Origin: Nitrososphaerota archaeon
GTDB lineage: Archaea; Thermoproteota; Nitrososphaeria_A; Caldarchaeales; Calditenuaceae
Assembly: GCA_038845265.1 (NCBI GenBank)
Contig: JAWBQR010000004.1
Coordinates: forward strand, 45,978 to 109,977
Length of the DNA: 64,000 nt
Direction: 5' to 3'
Shown: positions 6,610 to 64,000 of the stretch, one piece after another
Layout: each line of letters starts with the position of its first letter
Position numbering within the stretch: position 1 is the first letter of the stretch
Position numbers and translations under genes: made by a program
Notes under the pieces: generated by a model
Databases searched by the model: none
Seen by the model: only the letters and a program-made list of their open reading frames with translations
What the model was told of the DNA's origin: nothing

Positions 6610-9600
6610 GGTTCTCGTTCTCGGGTCTGGAGGAATTAAGATAGCTGAAGCTGCCGAATTTGATTATAGTGGAAGCCAAGCATTGAAGGCATTAAAAGAG
6701 GAAGGGATCAAAACCGTATTGGTTAATCCTAATGTTGCTACTATTCAGACTTCCCATACACTCGCGGATAAAGTATATCTCCTGCCACTCACGTCAGATT
6801 TTGTTTCACGAGTTATTGAGAAGGAGCGTCCAGACGGCATATTAATTGGTTTCGGCGGCCAGTCAGCACTCTCGACCGGAGTAGAGCTTTATCGTAAAGG
6901 AGTACTTTCTGAGTACAGTGTTAAAGTTTTAGGCACACCCATTGAGGGAATAGAGGCCGCGCTTACACGACATATCTTCCGTGAAACTATGTTGCAGTCG
7001 GGGATACCAATACCGCCCTCCATGCCTGCGACAACAATTGATGGAGCGCTCGAAGCTGCTGAGGAAATAGGTTACCCCGTGATAGTAAGAGTTAGCTTCA
7101 ATCTTGGTGGAAGAGGCAGTTTTATAGCTCGTAGAAGGCAGGATCTCGAGTCAGAACTCTCTAGAGCTTTTTCTCATAGTCCTGTTAAGAGTCTTCTTGT
7201 TGAGAGGTATCTTGATAGATGGAAAGAGATAGAATATGAGATAGTTCGAGATAGGGATGGAAACTCAGTTGCGGTCGCATGTCTGGAAAACATTGAACCG
7301 ATGGGTGTACATACTGGCGAGTCACTAGTAGTCGCTCCGAGCCAGACGCTAACAGACACTGAATATCAATCAATGAGACGCGCGTCCATAAAGGTAGCTG
7401 AAGCAATAAATCTGATTGGTGAGTGTAACGTACAATTAGCGTTAGATCAAAAATCAGGAATGTACTATGTCATCGAGACAAATCCCAGAATGTCCCGAAG
7501 CAGTGCTCTCGCAAGCAAGGCGACAGGATATCCATTAGCATATGTCGCGGCTAAGCTTGCTCTTGGATATCTTCTCGATGAATTAATTAATAAAGTGACT
7601 GGAACCACAACTGCTTTTTTCGAACCGAGCCTTGACTACATTGTTTTGAAGGCGCCGAGATGGGACCTTGAAAAGTTCTGGCCAGTTGAAAATGTCCTGA
7701 ACTCTGAGATGAAGAGCGTCGGTGAGGTAATGGCGATAGGGAGAAACCTAGAAGAGGTCTATCAAAAAGCATTCAGGATGCTAGACATAGGAGTAACCGG
7801 CGTTGTAACCTCAAAAATGTTTGAAGACGAAGAAGCACTTGACAGCATATTATTGAGAATTGAGAATTTCAGGCCATACTGGCTATTAGATATCGCTAAG
7901 GCAATTATACGTGGAGCAACAGTAGAAGATATTTCCTCAAAAACTGGGGTTGACCCATTCTTTATTAGACCTGTGGAGAACATTGTAAAAATAGGAAGAA
8001 GACTCATCAATTTGAAAAAACTGGACGAAAAACAACGCAGATTGATTCTGCGAGAAGCAGTTAAAAATGGATTCTCTGCAGAACAGATAGCTGAACTTTC
8101 AAAATACACGACTAATGAAATAATGACGATGCTTAAGGAATGTTCAATCTTTCCAGTCGCCAAAAATATTGATACACTTGCTGGAGAACAACCCGCTAGA
8201 ACCAACTATCTTTACATGACTTTTAATGGTATCGAAGATGATACTAATCCTTCAGGCAAGGACTCAATTATCATTTTAGGCGCTGGAGGATTTAGAATAG
8301 GAGTGTCAGTCGAGTTTGACTGGGCTGTTGTTGGGATCTACAAGTCACTTAGAGACAAGGGTTGGAATGTCATCGTAATTAATTATAATCCAGAGACCGT
8401 ATCAACGGATTGGGACATTGTACATAGGCTCTACAATGCTGAACTCGCAACCTCTTCATTAATGTGGATTATGGAGAAAGTAAATACAAGGAGGGTAATA
8501 ATATCTGCTGGAGGACAGATTGGCAATAACTTGGCAGTCGAGCTGGCGAAAAACAATTTAGAAATCATAGGGACACCTTCATTATCAATCGATAGAGCAG
8601 AAGACCGGTCTAAATTTAGCAGAGTTGTCGAGGATCTTGGACTGAAACAGCCGCCATGGAACAGGGTAAATAATCTTGTAGACGCATTAGACTTTGCTGA
8701 TGAAGTGGGATATCCAGTAATTGTTAGACCGAGCTATATTCTTAGCGGTTCTTCGATATTCATTGCTTGGAACAAAAAAGAGTTGTCCTCCCTTATAGAG
8801 AAAGTGATTTCTATCTCTGATAAACCAATAGTAATCAGTAAATATTTCGAGGACGCTATAGAGTCAGAAGTCGATGGTGTCACAGACGGTGCCTCAACAT
8901 TAATCGTGCCTCTAGAGCACGTTGAGCCTGCAGGCGTACACAGTGGTGATGCAACGATACACACACCATTAAGAGAATTAGATGAAAGAATGCTTAGAAA
9001 GATGACCGAAACTGCACATTATTTAGTAAAGGAGCTGAAGATAAAGGGCCCTTTCAATGTTCAGTTCATTGTTAAAAATTCCGATCTCTATTTATTAGAA
9101 ATGAATTTGAGATGTAGTAGGTCCATGCCTTTCAGCAGTAAGGCATGCGGCATCAATTTAATGGACCTATGGGCATCAGTAATAACGACCTCGAAACTTA
9201 ATATCCCCAAAAATGCAATAGAAATAAGAAGTAATGTCTTCATACCCAACACTAATGCATGGGCAGTAAAGTCGCCCCAATTTTCTTGGGCACAGTTAAA
9301 GAGGAGTTATCCTTCTCTGAGCCCTGAGATGAGGAGCACAGGAGAGGTGGCGGCTTTAGGACTTACATTCCATGAAGCACTTCTAAAGAGTTGGATATCT
9401 GCGACACCTAATAAAATTCCGAGCAGTGACAAGCCCATATTAATATACACTGCGAATACTCGAGATGCTCACATAATGGAAATGGCTGCAAGGAAATTCA
9501 TGGAGGCGGATTTCGAGGTAGTCACACTAAGCGGTGGGATAATTGACCGATTAGATGCATTAACTGTTGAAGATGCTGTTCACGCAATTAAGAGAAACAC

Positions 9601-9799
9601 AATCGGATTAATCATAACTAGTGGTTACTCACCATCAATAGACTATGCGGTTAGGAGGACAGCAGTAGACCATAATGTACCACTCATTCTCGACGCTAAA
9701 CTAGGATATGAAATTGTAACAGCCATAAAGAAGCACAAAACCGGAGAGATAGAGATGGATGTTAAAGAAATTTCAGAATATTGGAACAATCATGTCTAA
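6593..9799 (+). CDS. carB: carbamoyl-phosphate synthase large subunit
   Basis: 1068 aa with duplicated ATP-grasp halves (KVLVLGSGGIKIAEAAEFDYSG...; IIILGAGGFRIGVSVEFDW...), an oligomerisation domain and an MGS-like domain. Confidence 0.95.
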   Translation: MERISKVLVLGSGGIKIAEAAEFDYSGSQALKALKEEGIKTVLVNPNVATIQTSHTLADKVYLLPLTSDFVSRVIEKERPDGILIGFGGQSALSTGVELYRKGVLSEYSVKVLGTPIEGIEAALTRHIFRETMLQSGIPIPPSMPATTIDGALEAAEEIGYPVIVRVSFNLGGRGSFIARRRQDLESELSRAFSHSPVKSLLVERYLDRWKEIEYEIVRDRDGNSVAVACLENIEPMGVHTGESLVVAPSQTLTDTEYQSMRRASIKVAEAINLIGECNVQLALDQKSGMYYVIETNPRMSRSSALASKATGYPLAYVAAKLALGYLLDELINKVTGTTTAFFEPSLDYIVLKAPRWDLEKFWPVENVLNSEMKSVGEVMAIGRNLEEVYQKAFRMLDIGVTGVVTSKMFEDEEALDSILLRIENFRPYWLLDIAKAIIRGATVEDISSKTGVDPFFIRPVENIVKIGRRLINLKKLDEKQRRLILREAVKNGFSAEQIAELSKYTTNEIMTMLKECSIFPVAKNIDTLAGEQPARTNYLYMTFNGIEDDTNPSGKDSIIILGAGGFRIGVSVEFDWAVVGIYKSLRDKGWNVIVINYNPETVSTDWDIVHRLYNAELATSSLMWIMEKVNTRRVIISAGGQIGNNLAVELAKNNLEIIGTPSLSIDRAEDRSKFSRVVEDLGLKQPPWNRVNNLVDALDFADEVGYPVIVRPSYILSGSSIFIAWNKKELSSLIEKVISISDKPIVISKYFEDAIESEVDGVTDGASTLIVPLEHVEPAGVHSGDATIHTPLRELDERMLRKMTETAHYLVKELKIKGPFNVQFIVKNSDLYLLEMNLRCSRSMPFSSKACGINLMDLWASVITTSKLNIPKNAIEIRSNVFIPNTNAWAVKSPQFSWAQLKRSYPSLSPEMRSTGEVAALGLTFHEALLKSWISATPNKIPSSDKPILIYTANTRDAHIMEMAARKFMEADFEVVTLSGGIIDRLDALTVEDAVHAIKRNTIGLIITSGYSPSIDYAVRRTAVDHNVPLILDAKLGYEIVTAIKKHKTGEIEMDVKEISEYWNNHV

Positions 9800-9821
9800 T
9801 CAATAAATACACCGATTATGA

Positions 9822-9895
9822 GAGCCCCGGGCGGGGGTCGAACCCGCGACCTGCCGCTTACAAGGCGGCCGCTCTACCACTGAGCTACCGGGGCC
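9822..9895 (-). tRNA. tRNA-Thr (anticodon UGU)
   Basis: Reverse complement: acceptor GCCCCGG/CCGGGGC, D-arm GCTC-AGTGGTA-GAGC, anticodon stem GCCGC/GCGGC with loop CUUGUAA (anticodon UGU), T-arm GCGGG-TTCGACC-CCCGC. No encoded CCA. Confidence 0.85.
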
Positions 9896-10942
9896 ATTAT
9901 TAAGAAATTAAAAAAGAACGATATTACTTTTTGTCTCTTCACTTACTCAGAGATAAAACCCAAATAATTACAATCCTTCAATCAGTGTTCTTTAGACAGC
10001 CATCATGGTCCTTATGTACATCAGAAAAGACTTGCTCAGCGCTCAAGATCATCTTCATTGACTCCGACTGGCCAGACACATCATCGCTGATATGAGTCTG
10101 TATCTTTTTGTTATTTATGTTTTCTGTTGCCTCTTATTAGTCAATCATCATTATCGATATCTTGCTTTTTGATAACTTTTTATTATTCCAGGCAAACCTA
10201 AGGGCTAGTACGTAGAGTAGAAACTACTGATTCATCTCTATGCCGACAAGAACTTGGAAAAAGGGCGTCCCATAAATTCAGGCGTTCTATTTAGACTATA
10301 AGCATGGATATAATCTGTGGAATCTATGCTGGTCTGCCGATAGAGAGGCTTACGAATTCTTTATATTCATCGACTTTGGCCGATATATTATGATGCTCAG
10401 AATTTTTTAATTGTTTCGCTAGTGTTTTCAGGGCTTCCAAACCTAGTATGGTCCCCACGTATGGAACTTAATCTTGGAGTGTGGGAAGCTAATCCTCCTA
10501 TAGACGTGTACGCCATGAGGACCGGTGAATGTGCGACTGAGTTAGAAGAATACTTAATAAATACTTTGCTAATTGCTTTTGAGATTCTAGACAGGCGGTG
10601 ATTCGTTTTATTTCAGAGATGGGAAATAAATATGATGGTTTATTCGCACTTCAGTTTAGAGAGACAAACAACGAGGACGAGGCGGACGTAATTTTTTTAT
10701 GCTGACCAACTAGGTATGGGGATTGGAGTGATAACATTTTTATCTAATACGCCTCCTTTTGAAGTAGTAGATTGTGAAGTCGGCATAGCAAACATATATG
10801 TGCGGTCTCTGGTTATACTTCATGAACTCTATCATACACTTGGAACCCATAAAACCATGAAAGAGGCTTCCTTTTGGGAATGAATGCAATTGGACAGGTT
10901 CATTATCGCAAATTCTAAATGCAGAATGACGGTTTTATATCT

Positions 10943-12127
10943 TTATTTTTGAGGAGTATCTGTTAGCTTCATTTTCAAAGGCAGTGGCATGTGTCTTCTG
11001 CTTGTCGAGATGTATATGATGTCTTCGTCTCTGATTCCTGCATCGATAAGTTTCTGGTCGTCATTCAGTCTTTTTGTGCCGTGGAGTATCTCTGGGTCTG
11101 GAAAGCTATATCTGAGGGCTATTATCTCTTTAAGAGTCTGGATAGTCCAGTCGGGATGAGCATTTATTGATTGTACCTGTTCTTCTACGTCCCCGCATAC
11201 TATGCATTCCTTCATTCTTGCGAGTTTTACTCTTGTTAATCTTGAATGTAATGCGTCATAGACAAACAACCCAGTATCGGGCTCGCCCAGTCTGCCTTTG
11301 TGTAAAAGTTTTATGACCTGAGTAGTCATGAGTCCTGCAATTGTGGCTGAGACGCTCTGAATTGCAGGCGACTTAGGTTTCAGCCTATCCCTCACTTCAA
11401 GGATTAATTTACTAAGTTCTGGAGCTAATTCATTAATAATATTCTCTAACTTACTATACTTTAGGTCGTATATCGTCTTAATATTTAATCTAAAAAGCTC
11501 TTCCGCTACTTCTCTGCTGATTACTATGCCTTGTTCCATCAGGTCCTTTACTAGCTCATCCGGACTCCTTCTCCTAAGCGTGCATTCAGCCAATCTCTCT
11601 TCACGTGATATGAGGTTTTCACCATGACATTCTAGACATGCAGTTCTTCCAGGAATCACTACTTGGACATTTCCATAAAATCCCTCAATGCTCCCATCGA
11701 CCATAGGCTTACCTAGCGAGACGCAGAGGGAATTTAACCATCTCCTAACACCCCAGCTATCAAGACACGAGCAGACTACGTCAGAATCCTCGAAGACTTT
11801 CTCAGGCAACTGTCTCACATCTGAATTGTAATACACAACGTCGACGAATCTATTCATACTTTTTATTTTTTGAGCAGCTACCTCACTTTTAGGCTTACCA
11901 ATATCATTCTCAGTGAATAGCATCTGTCTACTCAGGTTGCTTAACTCTACAACATCATTATCAATCAATACTAATTTTCCAATGCCCATTAATGCTAAGT
12001 TCTTAGCTACCTCGCAACCAAGTGCACCTACTCCCACAATAGCAACCGCACCATTCTGAACGGAGCTCTGATCCCATCCAGGAGTCCTTGCCTGCCTATC
12101 GTATCTTTCTTGAATTTCTGTGTCCAT
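10943..12127 (-). CDS. E1-like ubiquitin-activating enzyme (ThiF/MoeB adenylation domain + Zn motif + C-terminal possible ubiquitin-fold domain)
   Basis: RYDRQ...AIVGVGALGCEVAKNLALMGIGKLVLIDNDVVELSNLSRQ is the E1/MoeB nucleotide-binding fold. CLECHGEN and CIVCGD form the paired CxxC zinc motif. About 90 aa after the second CxxC could be a ubiquitin-fold/β-grasp domain like the C-terminal domain of eukaryotic E1s (inferred from position, not from a recognised motif). It is the last gene of the Ubl-E2-E1 operon. Confidence 0.85.
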   Translation of the reverse strand: MDTEIQERYDRQARTPGWDQSSVQNGAVAIVGVGALGCEVAKNLALMGIGKLVLIDNDVVELSNLSRQMLFTENDIGKPKSEVAAQKIKSMNRFVDVVYYNSDVRQLPEKVFEDSDVVCSCLDSWGVRRWLNSLCVSLGKPMVDGSIEGFYGNVQVVIPGRTACLECHGENLISREERLAECTLRRRSPDELVKDLMEQGIVISREVAEELFRLNIKTIYDLKYSKLENIINELAPELSKLILEVRDRLKPKSPAIQSVSATIAGLMTTQVIKLLHKGRLGEPDTGLFVYDALHSRLTRVKLARMKECIVCGDVEEQVQSINAHPDWTIQTLKEIIALRYSFPDPEILHGTKRLNDDQKLIDAGIRDEDIIYISTSRRHMPLPLKMKLTDTPQK

Positions 12128-12133
12128 GTTGTT

Positions 12134-12628
12134 TCAAAGATATACTGATGAGCTCTCAGGAGTGGCATAGAGATTTATGTATTGTCTAACCCTAGCAATG
12201 AATCGCTCTGGCCAATTCTTCATCTCGTGGGCTGCCCATGCATTTAGGGGATCGTCAGGGTTAGGGTTCGTCAATAGATTTTTCAAGGCTTCTATTACTG
12301 ATACAACATGCATATTGGGATACCAGTCCTTGTTAAGTATAGACTCACATATCCTAGCAGGAACCTCATCTGTAAAGTTTGGATGCCAGATCCTGGTGTG
12401 CCAAACTACCTGTGGAGGTGTGAATGGAAATGACCGCTGCAAAAAGATCTCAACGACGAATACTCCGCCCTCATATATCCCAGTACCAATTATTGTCCCC
12501 TTATAGTGTGTCAAATCTCCATATACAGCGTCGAAGGTAGGCTCATAGTTCCTGATTAACTGGTACTCTTGTGCTAGGCGCTTCTCCCACTTTGCCTGTG
12601 AGAGCATGCCTACCTCCGACGACTCCAT
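12134..12628 (-). CDS. E2-like ubiquitin-conjugating enzyme (UBC fold)
   Basis: Canonical UBC active-site block WHTRIWHPNFTDEVPARICESILNKDWYPNMHV (HPN motif, catalytic Cys, W-x-P). Length 164 aa. There is a 6-nt gap to the E1 gene and a 2-nt gap to the Ubl gene. Confidence 0.85.
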   Translation of the reverse strand: MESSEVGMLSQAKWEKRLAQEYQLIRNYEPTFDAVYGDLTHYKGTIIGTGIYEGGVFVVEIFLQRSFPFTPPQVVWHTRIWHPNFTDEVPARICESILNKDWYPNMHVVSVIEALKNLLTNPNPDDPLNAWAAHEMKNWPERFIARVRQYINLYATPESSSVYL

Positions 12629-12630
12629 GA

Positions 12631-12867
12631 CTATCCACCTACTGTCCTAGTGATCAGGACTAACTTGTCTCCTTCTGCTACGCCTGCTGAAGAAAGTGTT
12701 TCAGTGTCGTTCAGCGCACGGCCTTTATAGGTCAGACGAGTATCATCAGGCCTTAGCTTCTTCATAGCGCAGACACGCATCTTTATGGCGCCTATACTAG
12801 CTGTCGGAGGCACATCTAACTCAATTGGTGGGCCACCACCGACTGCCGGTACTATCCGGATCTTCAA
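12631..12867 (-). CDS. ubiquitin-like small modifier (beta-grasp), C-terminal Gly-Gly directly followed by stop
   Basis: 78-aa protein MKIRIVP...GDKLVLITRTVGG*. It starts with a beta-strand (K-I-R-I-V), has a hydrophobic patch region and ends in a GG C-terminus with no pro-peptide. It is the first gene of the operon with E2 and E1. Confidence 0.8.
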   Translation of the reverse strand: MKIRIVPAVGGGPPIELDVPPTASIGAIKMRVCAMKKLRPDDTRLTYKGRALNDTETLSSAGVAEGDKLVLITRTVGG

Positions 12868-13056: not shown

Positions 13057-13674
13057 TTGCGGGTTAGGATATTTCCCGTGGCGTTGGGTAAAGTTATCTA
13101 TCATGCATCAACTAGCCCTAATGTTGAGGTGGCAGGATTATTGCTGGGCAAAGAGACGAGAGGAATAGTTGAGGTGTGGGACGCTGTTACTGGGCCACAG
13201 GAGGGGCACGCTGGATATGTAAAATTAAATGAGGAAGTCATGGCGATTGTAGCAGAAAAATTAATGACGCTTGGATTAGATATTTACATAGTTGGTTGGT
13301 ATCATTCTCACCCTGGATATGGTCTCTTTCTCTCCGCAATAGATGTCCGCACCCAGCTTGCATATCAAGCCTTATATCCAAAATCAATAGCGTTAGTAAT
13401 CGATCCATCCAAGTTTATAGAGCATGGAGACATAACTGATGTTGCATTTAAAGTTTTTAGAGTAGACGGTAAATTAGGAGTAATCGAAGTACCGTCATCC
13501 ATAGGCATGGATAGGAAAAAGGTATTGGAGTCTACACTTGCCGCTCTTAAAGGGTTAAACATTGACAACTCATTTCTGCTTCAAGAGTCGCCCTTAATGT
13601 TTGACAGAGCTAAGAAAGCCCTAGTAGATGTCGGTAAGAAGATATTTAGACGTGAAGTGGTGAGCAAGAAATGA
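13057..13674 (+). CDS. JAMM/MPN+ metalloisopeptidase (Rpn11/deubiquitinase-like) with C-terminal extension
   Basis: JAMM motif E-x(n)-HSHPGYGLFLSAID (EVAGLLLGK ... WYHSHPGYGLFLSAIDV). The gene is divergent from the Ubl operon across 189 bp. The ORF begins at TTG 13057, with a TATA-like TTTATAGG about 31 bp upstream. About 70 extra C-terminal residues lie beyond the MPN core. Confidence 0.85.
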   Translation: MRVRIFPVALGKVIYHASTSPNVEVAGLLLGKETRGIVEVWDAVTGPQEGHAGYVKLNEEVMAIVAEKLMTLGLDIYIVGWYHSHPGYGLFLSAIDVRTQLAYQALYPKSIALVIDPSKFIEHGDITDVAFKVFRVDGKLGVIEVPSSIGMDRKKVLESTLAALKGLNIDNSFLLQESPLMFDRAKKALVDVGKKIFRREVVSKK

Positions 13675-14456
13675 GTGAACGAAAGAAGATAGTAATTAAA
13701 AGGCGTTTATTTGACCAGGCACCAGAAGGCACCTTGCCATTAGTTCCTGAGACTGAGAAACCCAAGGAGAGAGAAGAAGACTTGACTTCTCAGCAACAGC
13801 AACCATTTGAAAATCTGAGCAAACCTCATGATTTATCAATTATTGATGCAGCAATTGAAAGATTTAATGAATTAATGAATAAAATAACTGAAATTAGGAG
13901 TAGGGATAGAACTATGCAGAAAGTTTTCCATAGGCAAGACTTTGTAGATCTAAGAGTGATAAAAAAGAAGCTGGATGAGTTGACAAACATGAGGAGCGAG
14001 GTATTGGCTGATGCCGGGCCAGTCGAGAATCTTCTTAATGAAGCTGTCAGCGTACTGGAAGCAGAGATGGTGAAACTTGAAGAGCAGTTATTTGAAAAAT
14101 TAGTAGAGATTGAATCTATTAGGGATTCTAATAATAAGTTGGAAATAGATAAATCAATACTCGAAAAACTCGAGGAAGAAGCTGACCGTATACGTGAAAA
14201 TATTTCCTCCGTTCATGGAAGAATATCTGAACTCCAATCAAAGATAGAACAGTTGAAGTCATTACCTCAGTCTATTAATGAATTAACTACGAGTGATGAG
14301 ATAGCTGAACCTCTCCTTAGGGATCTTATTTCCAGATTCAAGGATGAGGCAAGGGTCAATTCTGCAATTGAGAAAGTAATGCAAGATGAAGCAGTTCCGA
14401 AGCAATATGCAATAATATATTTGTGGAAAAGGCTCTATAAACCGAAAGTATCATGA
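13671..14456 (+). CDS. coiled-coil protein of unknown function, translationally coupled to the JAMM gene
   Basis: 261 aa, Cys-free. Disordered acidic/Q-rich N-terminus, then long heptad-like helices (ELTNMRSEVLADAG...LEAEMVKLEEQLFEKLVEIESIRD...). Its ATG overlaps the JAMM stop (ATGA at 13671-13674). Confidence 0.55.
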   Translation: MSERKKIVIKRRLFDQAPEGTLPLVPETEKPKEREEDLTSQQQQPFENLSKPHDLSIIDAAIERFNELMNKITEIRSRDRTMQKVFHRQDFVDLRVIKKKLDELTNMRSEVLADAGPVENLLNEAVSVLEAEMVKLEEQLFEKLVEIESIRDSNNKLEIDKSILEKLEEEADRIRENISSVHGRISELQSKIEQLKSLPQSINELTTSDEIAEPLLRDLISRFKDEARVNSAIEKVMQDEAVPKQYAIIYLWKRLYKPKVS

Positions 14457-29339: not shown

Positions 29340-30831
<1,492 letters not shown>

Positions 30832-62904: not shown

Positions 62905-62967
62905 ATTATTAAAGTCTGCAAACTAATATCTATAAAAAATAGTTTTATTTTGTTTTATCGTTAAAGA

Positions 62968-64000
62968 ATGAGAGTAGTCTTTAAGTTCGGCGGCACATCT
63001 CTCGCAAATGGCGAAAGAATTAGACACGCTGCAGAACTTGTAAAAAACTACCTTCCCGATAACAAGATAGTAGTTGTCTGCTCGGCAATGGGTGATACTA
63101 CAGATAATCTACTTGAGGCAATAGATGCTGCCGTTAACGGAGATAAGAAGAGAGTCGACGATGTTTTATCAGAGCTAAGCAGCCTACACCTTGAAGCAAT
63201 TGACAAGGCCGTAAGTGTTGATTCTATTAAAAGAGAGATTTACTCCAGAATCTCGGAAAACATTGGGAATCTAAGTCAGGTGCTGCATAGTATCTATTTT
63301 CTAAGAGAGGCAACTCCGAGGACGCGTGATTATGTCTTGTCCTTCGGTGAAAGGATGTCCAGCAGGATAATGTATGGAGCTCTCATGAGTCTGAGAATTG
63401 AGGCAAAGTATCTCGAGGGCGGAGAGGCAGGCATAATAACTGATTCCTCATTCGGAGAGGCCCAACCAATAATGGAAGTTACTCAGAAACAAGTAAGAGA
63501 AAGGGTGGGAGGACTTTTAGAGAGGAATATCACGCCTGTCGTAACCGGCTTCATAGGCACGACTGTAGACGGCGCAGTAACGACGTTGGGGAGGGGTGGT
63601 TCAGATTATACCGCCACGATCATTGCATATGCCATCAATGCTGAGGAGGTGTGGCTATGGTCTGATGTCGATGGACTGATGACGACTGACCCAAGAATAG
63701 TCAATGATGCACGGGTGCTTCCTGAGATATCATTCGAAGAAGCCATGGAAATGGCATTGTTTGGAGCGAAGGGGCTACATCCGAGGGCCCTAGAGCCCGC
63801 CCAAATGGGCAACATCAGGGTGAGGATAAAAAATACTTTCAACCCATCGGCCCCTGGTACACTGATATCTGAGTCTGCTAGAGGCATAGACAGCGTCGTC
63901 AAGGCTGTCCTGCTCGTTAGAGACGTAGCCATGATAACGCTGAGAGGAGCGTCGGTAGTAGGCAGGGCCGGGACAGCTGGAAGAATTCTCAGCACGTTGG
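62968..64000 (+). CDS. lysC: aspartate kinase (partial, 3' end beyond window)
   Basis: MRVVFKFGGTSLANGERI...VVVCSAMGDTTDNLLEA, GRGGSDYTA, and ALFGAKGLHPRA. The frame stays open to the end of the window. Confidence 0.85.
   Translation, partial: MRVVFKFGGTSLANGERIRHAAELVKNYLPDNKIVVVCSAMGDTTDNLLEAIDAAVNGDKKRVDDVLSELSSLHLEAIDKAVSVDSIKREIYSRISENIGNLSQVLHSIYFLREATPRTRDYVLSFGERMSSRIMYGALMSLRIEAKYLEGGEAGIITDSSFGEAQPIMEVTQKQVRERVGGLLERNITPVVTGFIGTTVDGAVTTLGRGGSDYTATIIAYAINAEEVWLWSDVDGLMTTDPRIVNDARVLPEISFEEAMEMALFGAKGLHPRALEPAQMGNIRVRIKNTFNPSAPGTLISESARGIDSVVKAVLLVRDVAMITLRGASVVGRAGTAGRILSTL

Follow-up and report, generated by a model that had tools for sequence, protein, structure and literature searches.

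A probable mosaic of a decayed metzincin gene and a C/D box small RNA gene between the E1-like and tRNA-Thr genes of a Nitrososphaerota archaeon

In a stretch of 64,000 nucleotides from a Nitrososphaerota archaeon (GenBank assembly GCA_038845265.1, contig JAWBQR010000004.1, positions 45,978 to 109,977; hereafter the window), roughly 1 kb of DNA at 9896–10942, between a tRNA-Thr gene and the gene for the E1-like protein of a ubiquitin-like cassette, appears at first sight to encode nothing, and the question that this locus raises is what such DNA represents. A preliminary description, made from the sequence alone, had offered a decayed gene (possibly a lost E3 ligase), the scar of an integrated element, small unannotated proteins or an origin-like region. 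Its central observation held, in that no ORF (open reading frame) of at least 60 amino acids is present on either strand between carB (stop at 9799) and the E1 gene (stop codon from 10943), the longest ORF within the stretch having 59 amino acids (10422–10601, + strand). With the tRNA gene included, the 1143 bp from 9800 to 10942 form the longest part of the window without such an ORF, in a window of which 93% is covered by ORFs of this size; the runner-up measures only 701 bp (62905–63605) and its sole Rfam match is insignificant. The GC content of the stretch (37.6%) is indeed below the window mean of 42.2%, but this places it at the 9th percentile among equal-sized windows; its AT-richness is mild and had been overstated. 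As set out below, the stretch is very probably a mosaic of a dead gene fragment related to matrix metalloproteases (MMPs), a live C/D box small RNA (sRNA) gene and promoter or spacer DNA, lying in a hotspot interval. Its parts are as follows.

9822–9894, - strand: tRNA-Thr(UGU), the lower boundary (ARAGORN; Rfam 73 bits)
9895–9930, - strand: upstream flank of the tRNA, presumed promoter region, kept in the related locus L002
9931–10032, no strand assigned: lineage-specific spacer, unalignable to relatives, with a T-rich tract 3' of the sRNA
10033–10088, - strand: C/D box sRNA of 56 nt (sub-threshold Rfam matches and conservation)
10089–10135, - strand: presumed sRNA promoter region with a conserved TATA-like element
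10136–10389, no strand assigned: spacer between the divergent sRNA and pseudogene, not in relatives
10390–10883, + strand: pseudogene of a metzincin (MMP-like) membrane protein, of which a 5' fragment (about 40%) is left (phmmer, profile)
10884–10942, no strand assigned: 59-bp tail from the present stop codon of the pseudogene to the convergent E1 stop codon, without homology to relatives
10943–12127, - strand: E1-like (ThiF) gene with a C-terminal ubiquitin-like (UBL) tail, apparently intact; the upper boundary (Pfam ThiF, E = 5e-62)

Remnant of an MMP-like metzincin gene

Compared with the related loci L001, L002 and L021, the window carries about 800 extra bp between the E1 stop codon and the sRNA promoter (10136–10932), and the + strand of this extra DNA contains successive short ORFs in alternating frames and an HExxH motif. 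A phmmer search with the frame-corrected translation (178 amino acids) of the approximately 490 bp at 10390–10883 against 1.84e9 (1.84 billion) representative proteins returned 28 hits, two of which (P0001 and P0002) are the same fragments called in other assemblies, leaving 26 non-self homologues of 220–410 amino acids. The best of these, P0003 (374 amino acids), aligned with E = 9e-17 and 41% identity, followed by P0004 (3e-15) and P0005 (1e-13), and the alignments of all three cross both frame junctions. These homologues were found by the exhaustive HMMER search alone: a word-indexed search with the same corrected translation recovered none, and a Pfam search of the raw fragments gave only Peptidase_M57 with E = 0.12–0.25. 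We also built a family profile from the 26 members (approximately 377 positions) and searched it against all six-frame fragments of the window, where exactly three colinear + strand pieces in alternating frames matched, the numbers after HMM denoting positions in this hidden Markov model.

10344–10598, + strand: piece 1, HMM 6–67, E = 6e-6
10583–10702, + strand: piece 2, HMM 68–103, E = 3e-13
10692–10880, + strand: piece 3, HMM 103–158, E = 2e-10

The sole further match in the window (13656–14453, E = 4e-5) is a high-bias coiled-coil match. Positions 159 to approximately 377 of the profile have no counterpart, the homology stopping at approximately 10850, so that the gene has lost about 60% of its length from the 3' end, with the Met-turn, the coiled coil and the C-terminal anchor gone; the deletion probably reaches to within 59 bp of the E1 stop codon. 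These data clearly show homology to intact proteins across frame changes together with the loss of essential parts, as is characteristic of a pseudogene.

The alignments place one frameshift between 10583 and 10599 and another in a T7 run at 10691–10697, and an earlier one would lie in a T6 run at 10404–10409. The start codon is probably the ATGATG at 10390, because the N-termini of the family begin with MMQP and a TATA-like element, TTTATATT (10360–10367), lies 30 nt before it. The zinc motif itself, HELYHTLG at 10821–10844, reads HELYHTLG-TH in the window copy as against HELYHTLGxGH in the family, the third zinc-binding histidine thus coming one residue early, and neither the zinc motif, the Met-turn nor an uninterrupted frame is intact in this copy. 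We therefore propose that 10390–10883 would be what is left, at the 5' end, of a dead gene for an MMP-like zinc protease, secreted or anchored in the membrane. Its reading frame would have been broken two or three times, twice in T homopolymers, and a deletion extending as far as the 3' end of the convergent E1 gene would have taken away everything beyond the zinc-binding helix; with these frame breaks and this loss, no active protease would be possible.

The lesions recur in the population. An identical E1 protein is found on 23 contigs from many samples, and nine near-identical, independent assemblies of the same species align over 9800–11000 with six variable sites, one of them in the 59-bp tail (10895). 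All nine share the truncation and the first two frame breaks, which rules out a one-off assembly error. The T run at 10691–10697 has seven Ts in seven assemblies and six in the other two (L008 and L011), in which the T6 allele fuses the pieces of 35 and 55 amino acids into a 94-amino-acid ORF (10598–10883), accompanied by a linked SNP (single-nucleotide polymorphism) at 10684 that is synonymous in the frame of this ORF. Diversity is approximately 2–6 variable sites per kb everywhere, which is too low for a test of selection.

Could the short + strand ORFs, 46–59 amino acids at 10422–10601 and 94 amino acids at 10598–10883 in the T6 allele, instead be real small genes, possibly phase-variable through slippage in the T homopolymer? 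Gene callers have annotated products of 46, 55 and 94 amino acids here in other assemblies, the codon-usage scores fall inside the range of true genes, a GTGA stop/start overlap at 10598–10601 looks like translational coupling, and the T6 and T7 alleles coexist in the population with the linked SNP being synonymous. However, the pieces are colinear segments of a single metzincin domain, their products would lack the signal peptide or the Met-turn, have a displaced third zinc ligand and cannot form the fold of every intact relative, there are no free-standing small homologues besides the same fragments P0001 and P0002, the broken T7 allele is the one found in seven of the nine assemblies and the codon score fails to separate these ORFs from an antisense ORF. 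We consider small genes improbable here; the unannotated small proteins of the preliminary description are fragments of a pseudogene, and are already annotated elsewhere.

The intact homologues have no annotation beyond that of hypothetical Nitrososphaerota proteins. They are approximately 330–410 amino acids long and combine a signal peptide and an MMP-like domain of approximately 190 amino acids with a long coiled coil and an anchor, hydrophobic or transmembrane, at the C-terminus. Their domain carries the complete HExxHxxGxxH motif, with His-143, Glu-144, His-147, Gly-150 and His-153 invariant in alignments of 20 and of 17 members, as well as two invariant cysteine residues and an invariant Met-163, ten residues past His-153, which is presumably that of the Met-turn. 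Pfam gave only sub-threshold matches, to Peptidase_M10, Reprolysin_5, Astacin and DUF4953, and, because the best M10 score (20.0 bits, for P0004) falls under the curated gathering cut-off of 24, the family appears from its sequence to be a distinct, uncurated metzincin family and not matrixin. In searches of PDB and NCBIfam with whole proteins, coiled-coil matches dominated; when the PDB profile search was confined to the N-terminal domain, all of its top matches were metzincins, although weak. An AlphaFold2 model of residues 1–215 of the member P0029 had a pLDDT (predicted local-distance difference test) value of 90.8, and Foldseek matched it to the catalytic domains of MMP-9, MMP-2, MMP-13, MMP-7 and karilysin (E approximately 3e-5, probability 1.00), the top 50 PDB hits being MMPs, karilysin and an adamalysin with E values of 3e-5 to 3e-4 and target-normalized TM (template-modelling) scores of 0.5–0.64. 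The intact family is thus predicted to adopt the metzincin catalytic-domain fold. It resembles the matrixins (MEROPS M10A, including human MMP-9, MMP-2 and MMP-13 and bacterial karilysin) in its HExxHxxGxxH motif, its downstream methionine and a predicted fold for which MMP catalytic domains are the best match, but it differs from them in its sub-threshold M10 score and in its architecture, in which the signal peptide is followed by the protease domain, a long coiled coil and a C-terminal transmembrane anchor; the window copy differs further in being a broken 5' fragment.

In two other loci (L028, 1486–11110, and L029, 1402–11125), intact family genes lie in a conserved, tightly packed cluster of approximately ten genes, which has almost no Pfam hits save one Rce1-like protein, ends in a protein of approximately 1000–1100 amino acids and may be an uncharacterized cell-surface system of Nitrososphaerota. 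No trace of the neighbours of the intact family genes (L027–L029) was found in the window.

A C/D box sRNA gene beside the pseudogene

In the preliminary description a thermostable non-coding RNA had been thought unlikely in this stretch, given its composition, but this is contradicted by a conserved 56-nt C/D box sRNA with a GC content of 52% on the - strand at 10033–10088. By blastn, segments of 61–93 nt just after the E1 gene in L001 and L002 match positions 10032–10123 of the window with 92 and 80% identity. The boxes are AUGAUGU (C, 10084–10078), CGGA (D', 10066–10063), UGAAGA (C', 10057–10052) and CUGA (D, 10039–10036), and the guides are the 11-nt GUCUGGCCAGU between C and D' and the 12-nt UGAUCUUGAGCG between C' and D. 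Against the usual form of the class (C box RUGAUGA, D box CUGA, internal D' and C' boxes, guides of approximately 12 nt and a length of approximately 50–60 nt), the C, C' and D' boxes each deviate once; in the relatives, the D' box is CUGA rather than CGGA. In an alignment of seven loci (the window, L001, L002 and L018–L021), the boxes and guides are near-invariant while the flanks diverge, and the exact sRNA pattern occurs in all 16 loci of the clade and in none of the loci that bear a RING gene after E1.

The sRNA also aligned over its full length, below threshold, to five archaeal C/D families, among them snoPyro_CD (25 bits, E = 0.012) and sR1 (E = 0.019). It therefore resembles known archaeal C/D sRNAs (snoPyro_CD, RF00095; Sulfolobus sR1, RF01152) in its size, its C/D'/C'/D order, its 11- and 12-nt guides, its full-length alignment to five models and a conservation that is confined to boxes and guides, and it departs from those models in scoring below their gathering thresholds, in a C box that ends in U and in its D' box CGGA. 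A TATA-like element, AAAACATAAATAA, lies at approximately 10111–10123, its centre preceding the 5' end of the sRNA by approximately 29 nt, and each of the seven aligned loci has the corresponding AAAATATAAA element at this distance, which suggests a promoter; a T-rich tract just 3' of the sRNA (CTTTTCT on the - strand) is a presumed terminator. Taken together, the conservation argues for a functional C/D box guide RNA gene, which would be live and transcribed from its own promoter, and which presumably directs 2'-O-methylation, most likely of 23S rRNA.

A second, very weak C/D-like pattern (AUGAUGG ... CUGA) was seen on the - strand at 9987–10047, where Rfam gave sR4 with 12 bits and E = 9.8; it is not conserved in relatives and is probably due to chance.

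The E1–carB interval in related genomes

By scanning for the E1 protein in one genome per species we obtained three relatives, L001 (82% identity in E1), L002 (80%, both over the full length) and L003 (55%), all of them Nitrososphaeria or Nitrososphaerales MAGs (metagenome-assembled genomes), and a scan of metagenomes added L018–L022. The following arrangements were found after E1.

L001, L002, L018 and L019: sRNA, cargo of approximately 4 kb, tRNA-Thr(CGU), carB
L020 and L021: sRNA, tRNA-Thr, a LAGLIDADG-like ORF of 368 amino acids and an ORF of 157 amino acids, carB
L003/L022 and L030–L035: an 86–96-amino-acid RING (zf-RING_2) gene directly, on the same strand

The 4-kb cargo encodes an ABC substrate-binding protein, two permeases and an MBL-fold hydrolase. 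Neither the ABC-transporter/MBL cargo (nothing in the window below an E value of approximately 0.07 by tblastn) nor the genes of the L021 insertion left a trace in the window, and the approximately 800 bp at 10136–10932 are missing from all close relatives, homology to which resumes only approximately 10 nt beyond the E1 stop codon. In L001, L002 and L018–L021, the gap between E1 and the sRNA promoter is only approximately 30–60 nt. At the other end of the interval, the blastn match of L002 spans the tRNA up to position 9930 of the window (88% over 109 nt). Because close relatives carry other insertions there, the E1–carB interval is a rearrangement hotspot, for which they show at least three cargo states. 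The cargo of the interval of E1, sRNA, tRNA-Thr and carB differs from lineage to lineage, and the direction of change here would be either gain followed by decay or loss in the other lineages.

In L021, the insertion comprises the GC-rich LAGLIDADG-like ORF (7426–8532, - strand; motifs LGDGY... and GFADSEGC) and the 157-amino-acid ORF (8616–9089, + strand) and sits exactly at the 3' end of the tRNA-Thr gene, between it and carB; it may represent an element that integrated with the tRNA as its target. The stretch in the window might likewise be read as the scar of a mobile element that integrated by tRNA-Thr and brought in the protease gene, a reading favoured by the lineage-dependent cargo, including this very insertion, and by the absence of the approximately 800 bp from all close relatives. 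We regard it as unlikely, since it is E1 and the sRNA, and not the tRNA, that flank the extra DNA, no integrase fragment, flanking direct repeat or tRNA-derived att duplication was found, records of phages and plasmids showed no similarity, and intact members of the metzincin family reside in a conserved chromosomal cluster without recognizable mobility genes.

Three segments, 9931–10032, 10136–10389 and 10884–10942, are lineage-specific, and apart from the weak match at 9987–10047 described above they gave no Rfam hit. No excess of RNA structure was found (z = +1.17 for 9931–10032, and -1.09 and +0.14 for the two strands of 10136–10389), and a search for repeats in and flanking the stretch gave only short chance-level matches. 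The remaining DNA would serve tRNA-Thr, the sRNA and the one-time protease gene as promoter and spacer. Words resembling origin recognition boxes (ORBs) had been noted in the stretch, and, as it is mildly AT-rich and non-coding, a replication origin or another regulatory region marked by them was considered; we give this practically no chance. Each of the two words occurs once, one near 10188 in the spacer and the other, TTCCAAACC (10437), inside the signal-peptide-coding part of the pseudogene, and neither repeated or inverted ORB or mini-ORB elements nor a local inflection in cumulative GC skew were found. In addition, the flanking genes are carB and E1 and not orc1/cdc6, of which the preliminary description had itself seen none nearby, and most of the segment is missing in close relatives, which would be unexpected for an origin.

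Several observations weigh against the mosaic of pseudogene, sRNA gene and spacer that we favour. The proposed start codon and first frameshift depend on a match to a low-complexity signal peptide, the closest intact orthologue found is only 41% identical, and the gene may never have been functional in this lineage or may have arrived already damaged. In their codon usage the fragments still resemble genes, with scores inside the range of true ones; this is consistent with recent decay but not discriminating, and residual expression of fragments may occur, the T6 allele keeping the ORF of 94 amino acids. With regard to the sRNA, it scores under all Rfam gathering thresholds (for snoPyro_CD, 25 bits where 45 are required), which weighs little on the class assignment because the Rfam models of archaeal sRNAs are largely specific to individual guides; its D' box in the window species is the deviant CGGA; and no guide target above chance was found in the 16S rRNA of the window or its three tRNAs, 23S rRNA lying outside the window. 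Lastly, approximately 410 bp of spacer are without a positive assignment.

Some further observations concern the RNA genes of the window. The tRNA-Thr has the anticodon UGU, as opposed to CGU in the syntenic tRNA of L001, L002, L018, L020 and L021, and is identical with the L002 tRNA except for C34→T in the anticodon, a change shared by every one of the nine aligned assemblies and suggestive of a point mutation that switched the anticodon. A 100-nt Rfam tRNA match at 52508–52607 (+ strand, 47 bits), not reported by ARAGORN, probably represents a tRNA with an intron. The archaeal 16S rRNA gene at 29340–30831 (+ strand) is complete and is followed by a 542-amino-acid ORF on the opposite strand, and a scan at Rfam gathering thresholds found no 23S rRNA gene in the window, so that the rRNA genes appear to be unlinked.

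The ubiquitin-like cassette and its E3 ligase

The genes for Ub (12631–12867), E2 (12134–12628) and E1 (10943–12127) form an operon on the - strand, with a divergent JAMM/Rpn11 gene at 13057–13674. In Ub, E2, E1 and the divergent Rpn11/JAMM, the cassette resembles the operon of Candidatus Caldiarchaeum subterraneum (PMC3082918, PMC5654768), in which the E1 gene is followed by a RING gene in the canonical arrangement (PMC5654768). The E1 proteins also share a C-terminal UBL-like region: residues 322–376 of the window E1 give a weak ubiquitin-fold match (Pfam ubiquitin, E = 0.0014), in keeping with the UBL domain described at the C-terminus of archaeal E1-like proteins (PMC5654768). In contrast with C. 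subterraneum, whose pro-ubiquitin requires cleavage by Rpn11 (PMC5654768), the 78-amino-acid Ub-like protein of the window ends directly in Gly-Gly without a propeptide (...RTVGG), as it does in L001 and L002. The cassette is also unlike that of C. subterraneum in that no srfp, the RING-finger E3 needed for modification of the substrate Rad50 in vitro (PMC5654768), follows E1 in the window or in six close relatives. In L033 (2646–3923), the E1 gene was called as two pieces (261 amino acids with ThiF, and 131 amino acids), sister assemblies having a single gene of 392 amino acids, and this split is either a frameshift or an assembly error.

The preliminary description had detected no E3 gene, and had placed the RING gene of Caldiarchaeum-type cassettes immediately after E1; both points stand, the latter in the more distant relatives (L003/L022 and L030–L035). 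We found no RING E3 in the 64 kb by tblastn, regular expression, a profile of eight archaeal srfp proteins or a search with a larger RING protein, while the positive controls L003/L022 gave E = 1e-52; nor was a RING gene detectable in the flanks of the L001/L002 or L018–L021 loci. No Cys/His cross-brace with similarity to srfp (PF13639/PF14446) was present in the stretch or elsewhere in the window. That a gene had decayed here was rightly suspected, in view of the frameshifted and truncated pseudogene, but its identification with the lost E3 did not hold. The slot directly downstream of E1 is the right one, as the RING gene of the more distant relatives shows. However, there is no srfp similarity on either strand (tblastn with word size 2, a Cys/His scan and the eight-srfp profile), the best RING matches in the window have E values of at least 2 and are located elsewhere, the recognizable coding remnant belongs to an MMP-like metzincin on the opposite strand, and in the closer relatives L001, L002 and L018–L021 the short gap between E1 and the sRNA promoter holds no RING gene. 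A decayed RING-finger E3 is thus highly improbable anywhere in the stretch and, judged from these comparisons, effectively refuted for 10390–10883.

The srfp/RING E3 appears to be absent from the locus in this clade as a whole (the window species, L001, L002 and L018–L021). A possible but rather doubtful extension is that the eukaryote-like Ub–E2–E1/Rpn11 cassette of the clade has truly lost its dedicated RING E3 and works without it, for example by E2-driven conjugation, and that the vacated slot has become a recombination hotspot capturing, and in this case degrading, unrelated cargo such as the MMP-like gene. The evidence for such a loss covers the 64 kb here and the flanks of the six related loci, and a relocated or divergent E3 may lie elsewhere.

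The stretch is therefore ordinary genome decay, neither a lost E3 nor a replication origin, and its biological value is modest. For annotation, it means that the hypothetical proteins of 46, 55 and 94 amino acids in public assemblies are fragments of one pseudogene, beside which a C/D box sRNA gene has gone unannotated. The intact homologues point to an uncharacterized archaeal family, found in Nitrososphaerota, of MMP-like membrane proteases with a coiled-coil stalk. In addition, archaeal ubiquitin-like cassettes without srfp at the canonical position are documented, which would bear on the evolution of E3-dependence if the absence is genome-wide.

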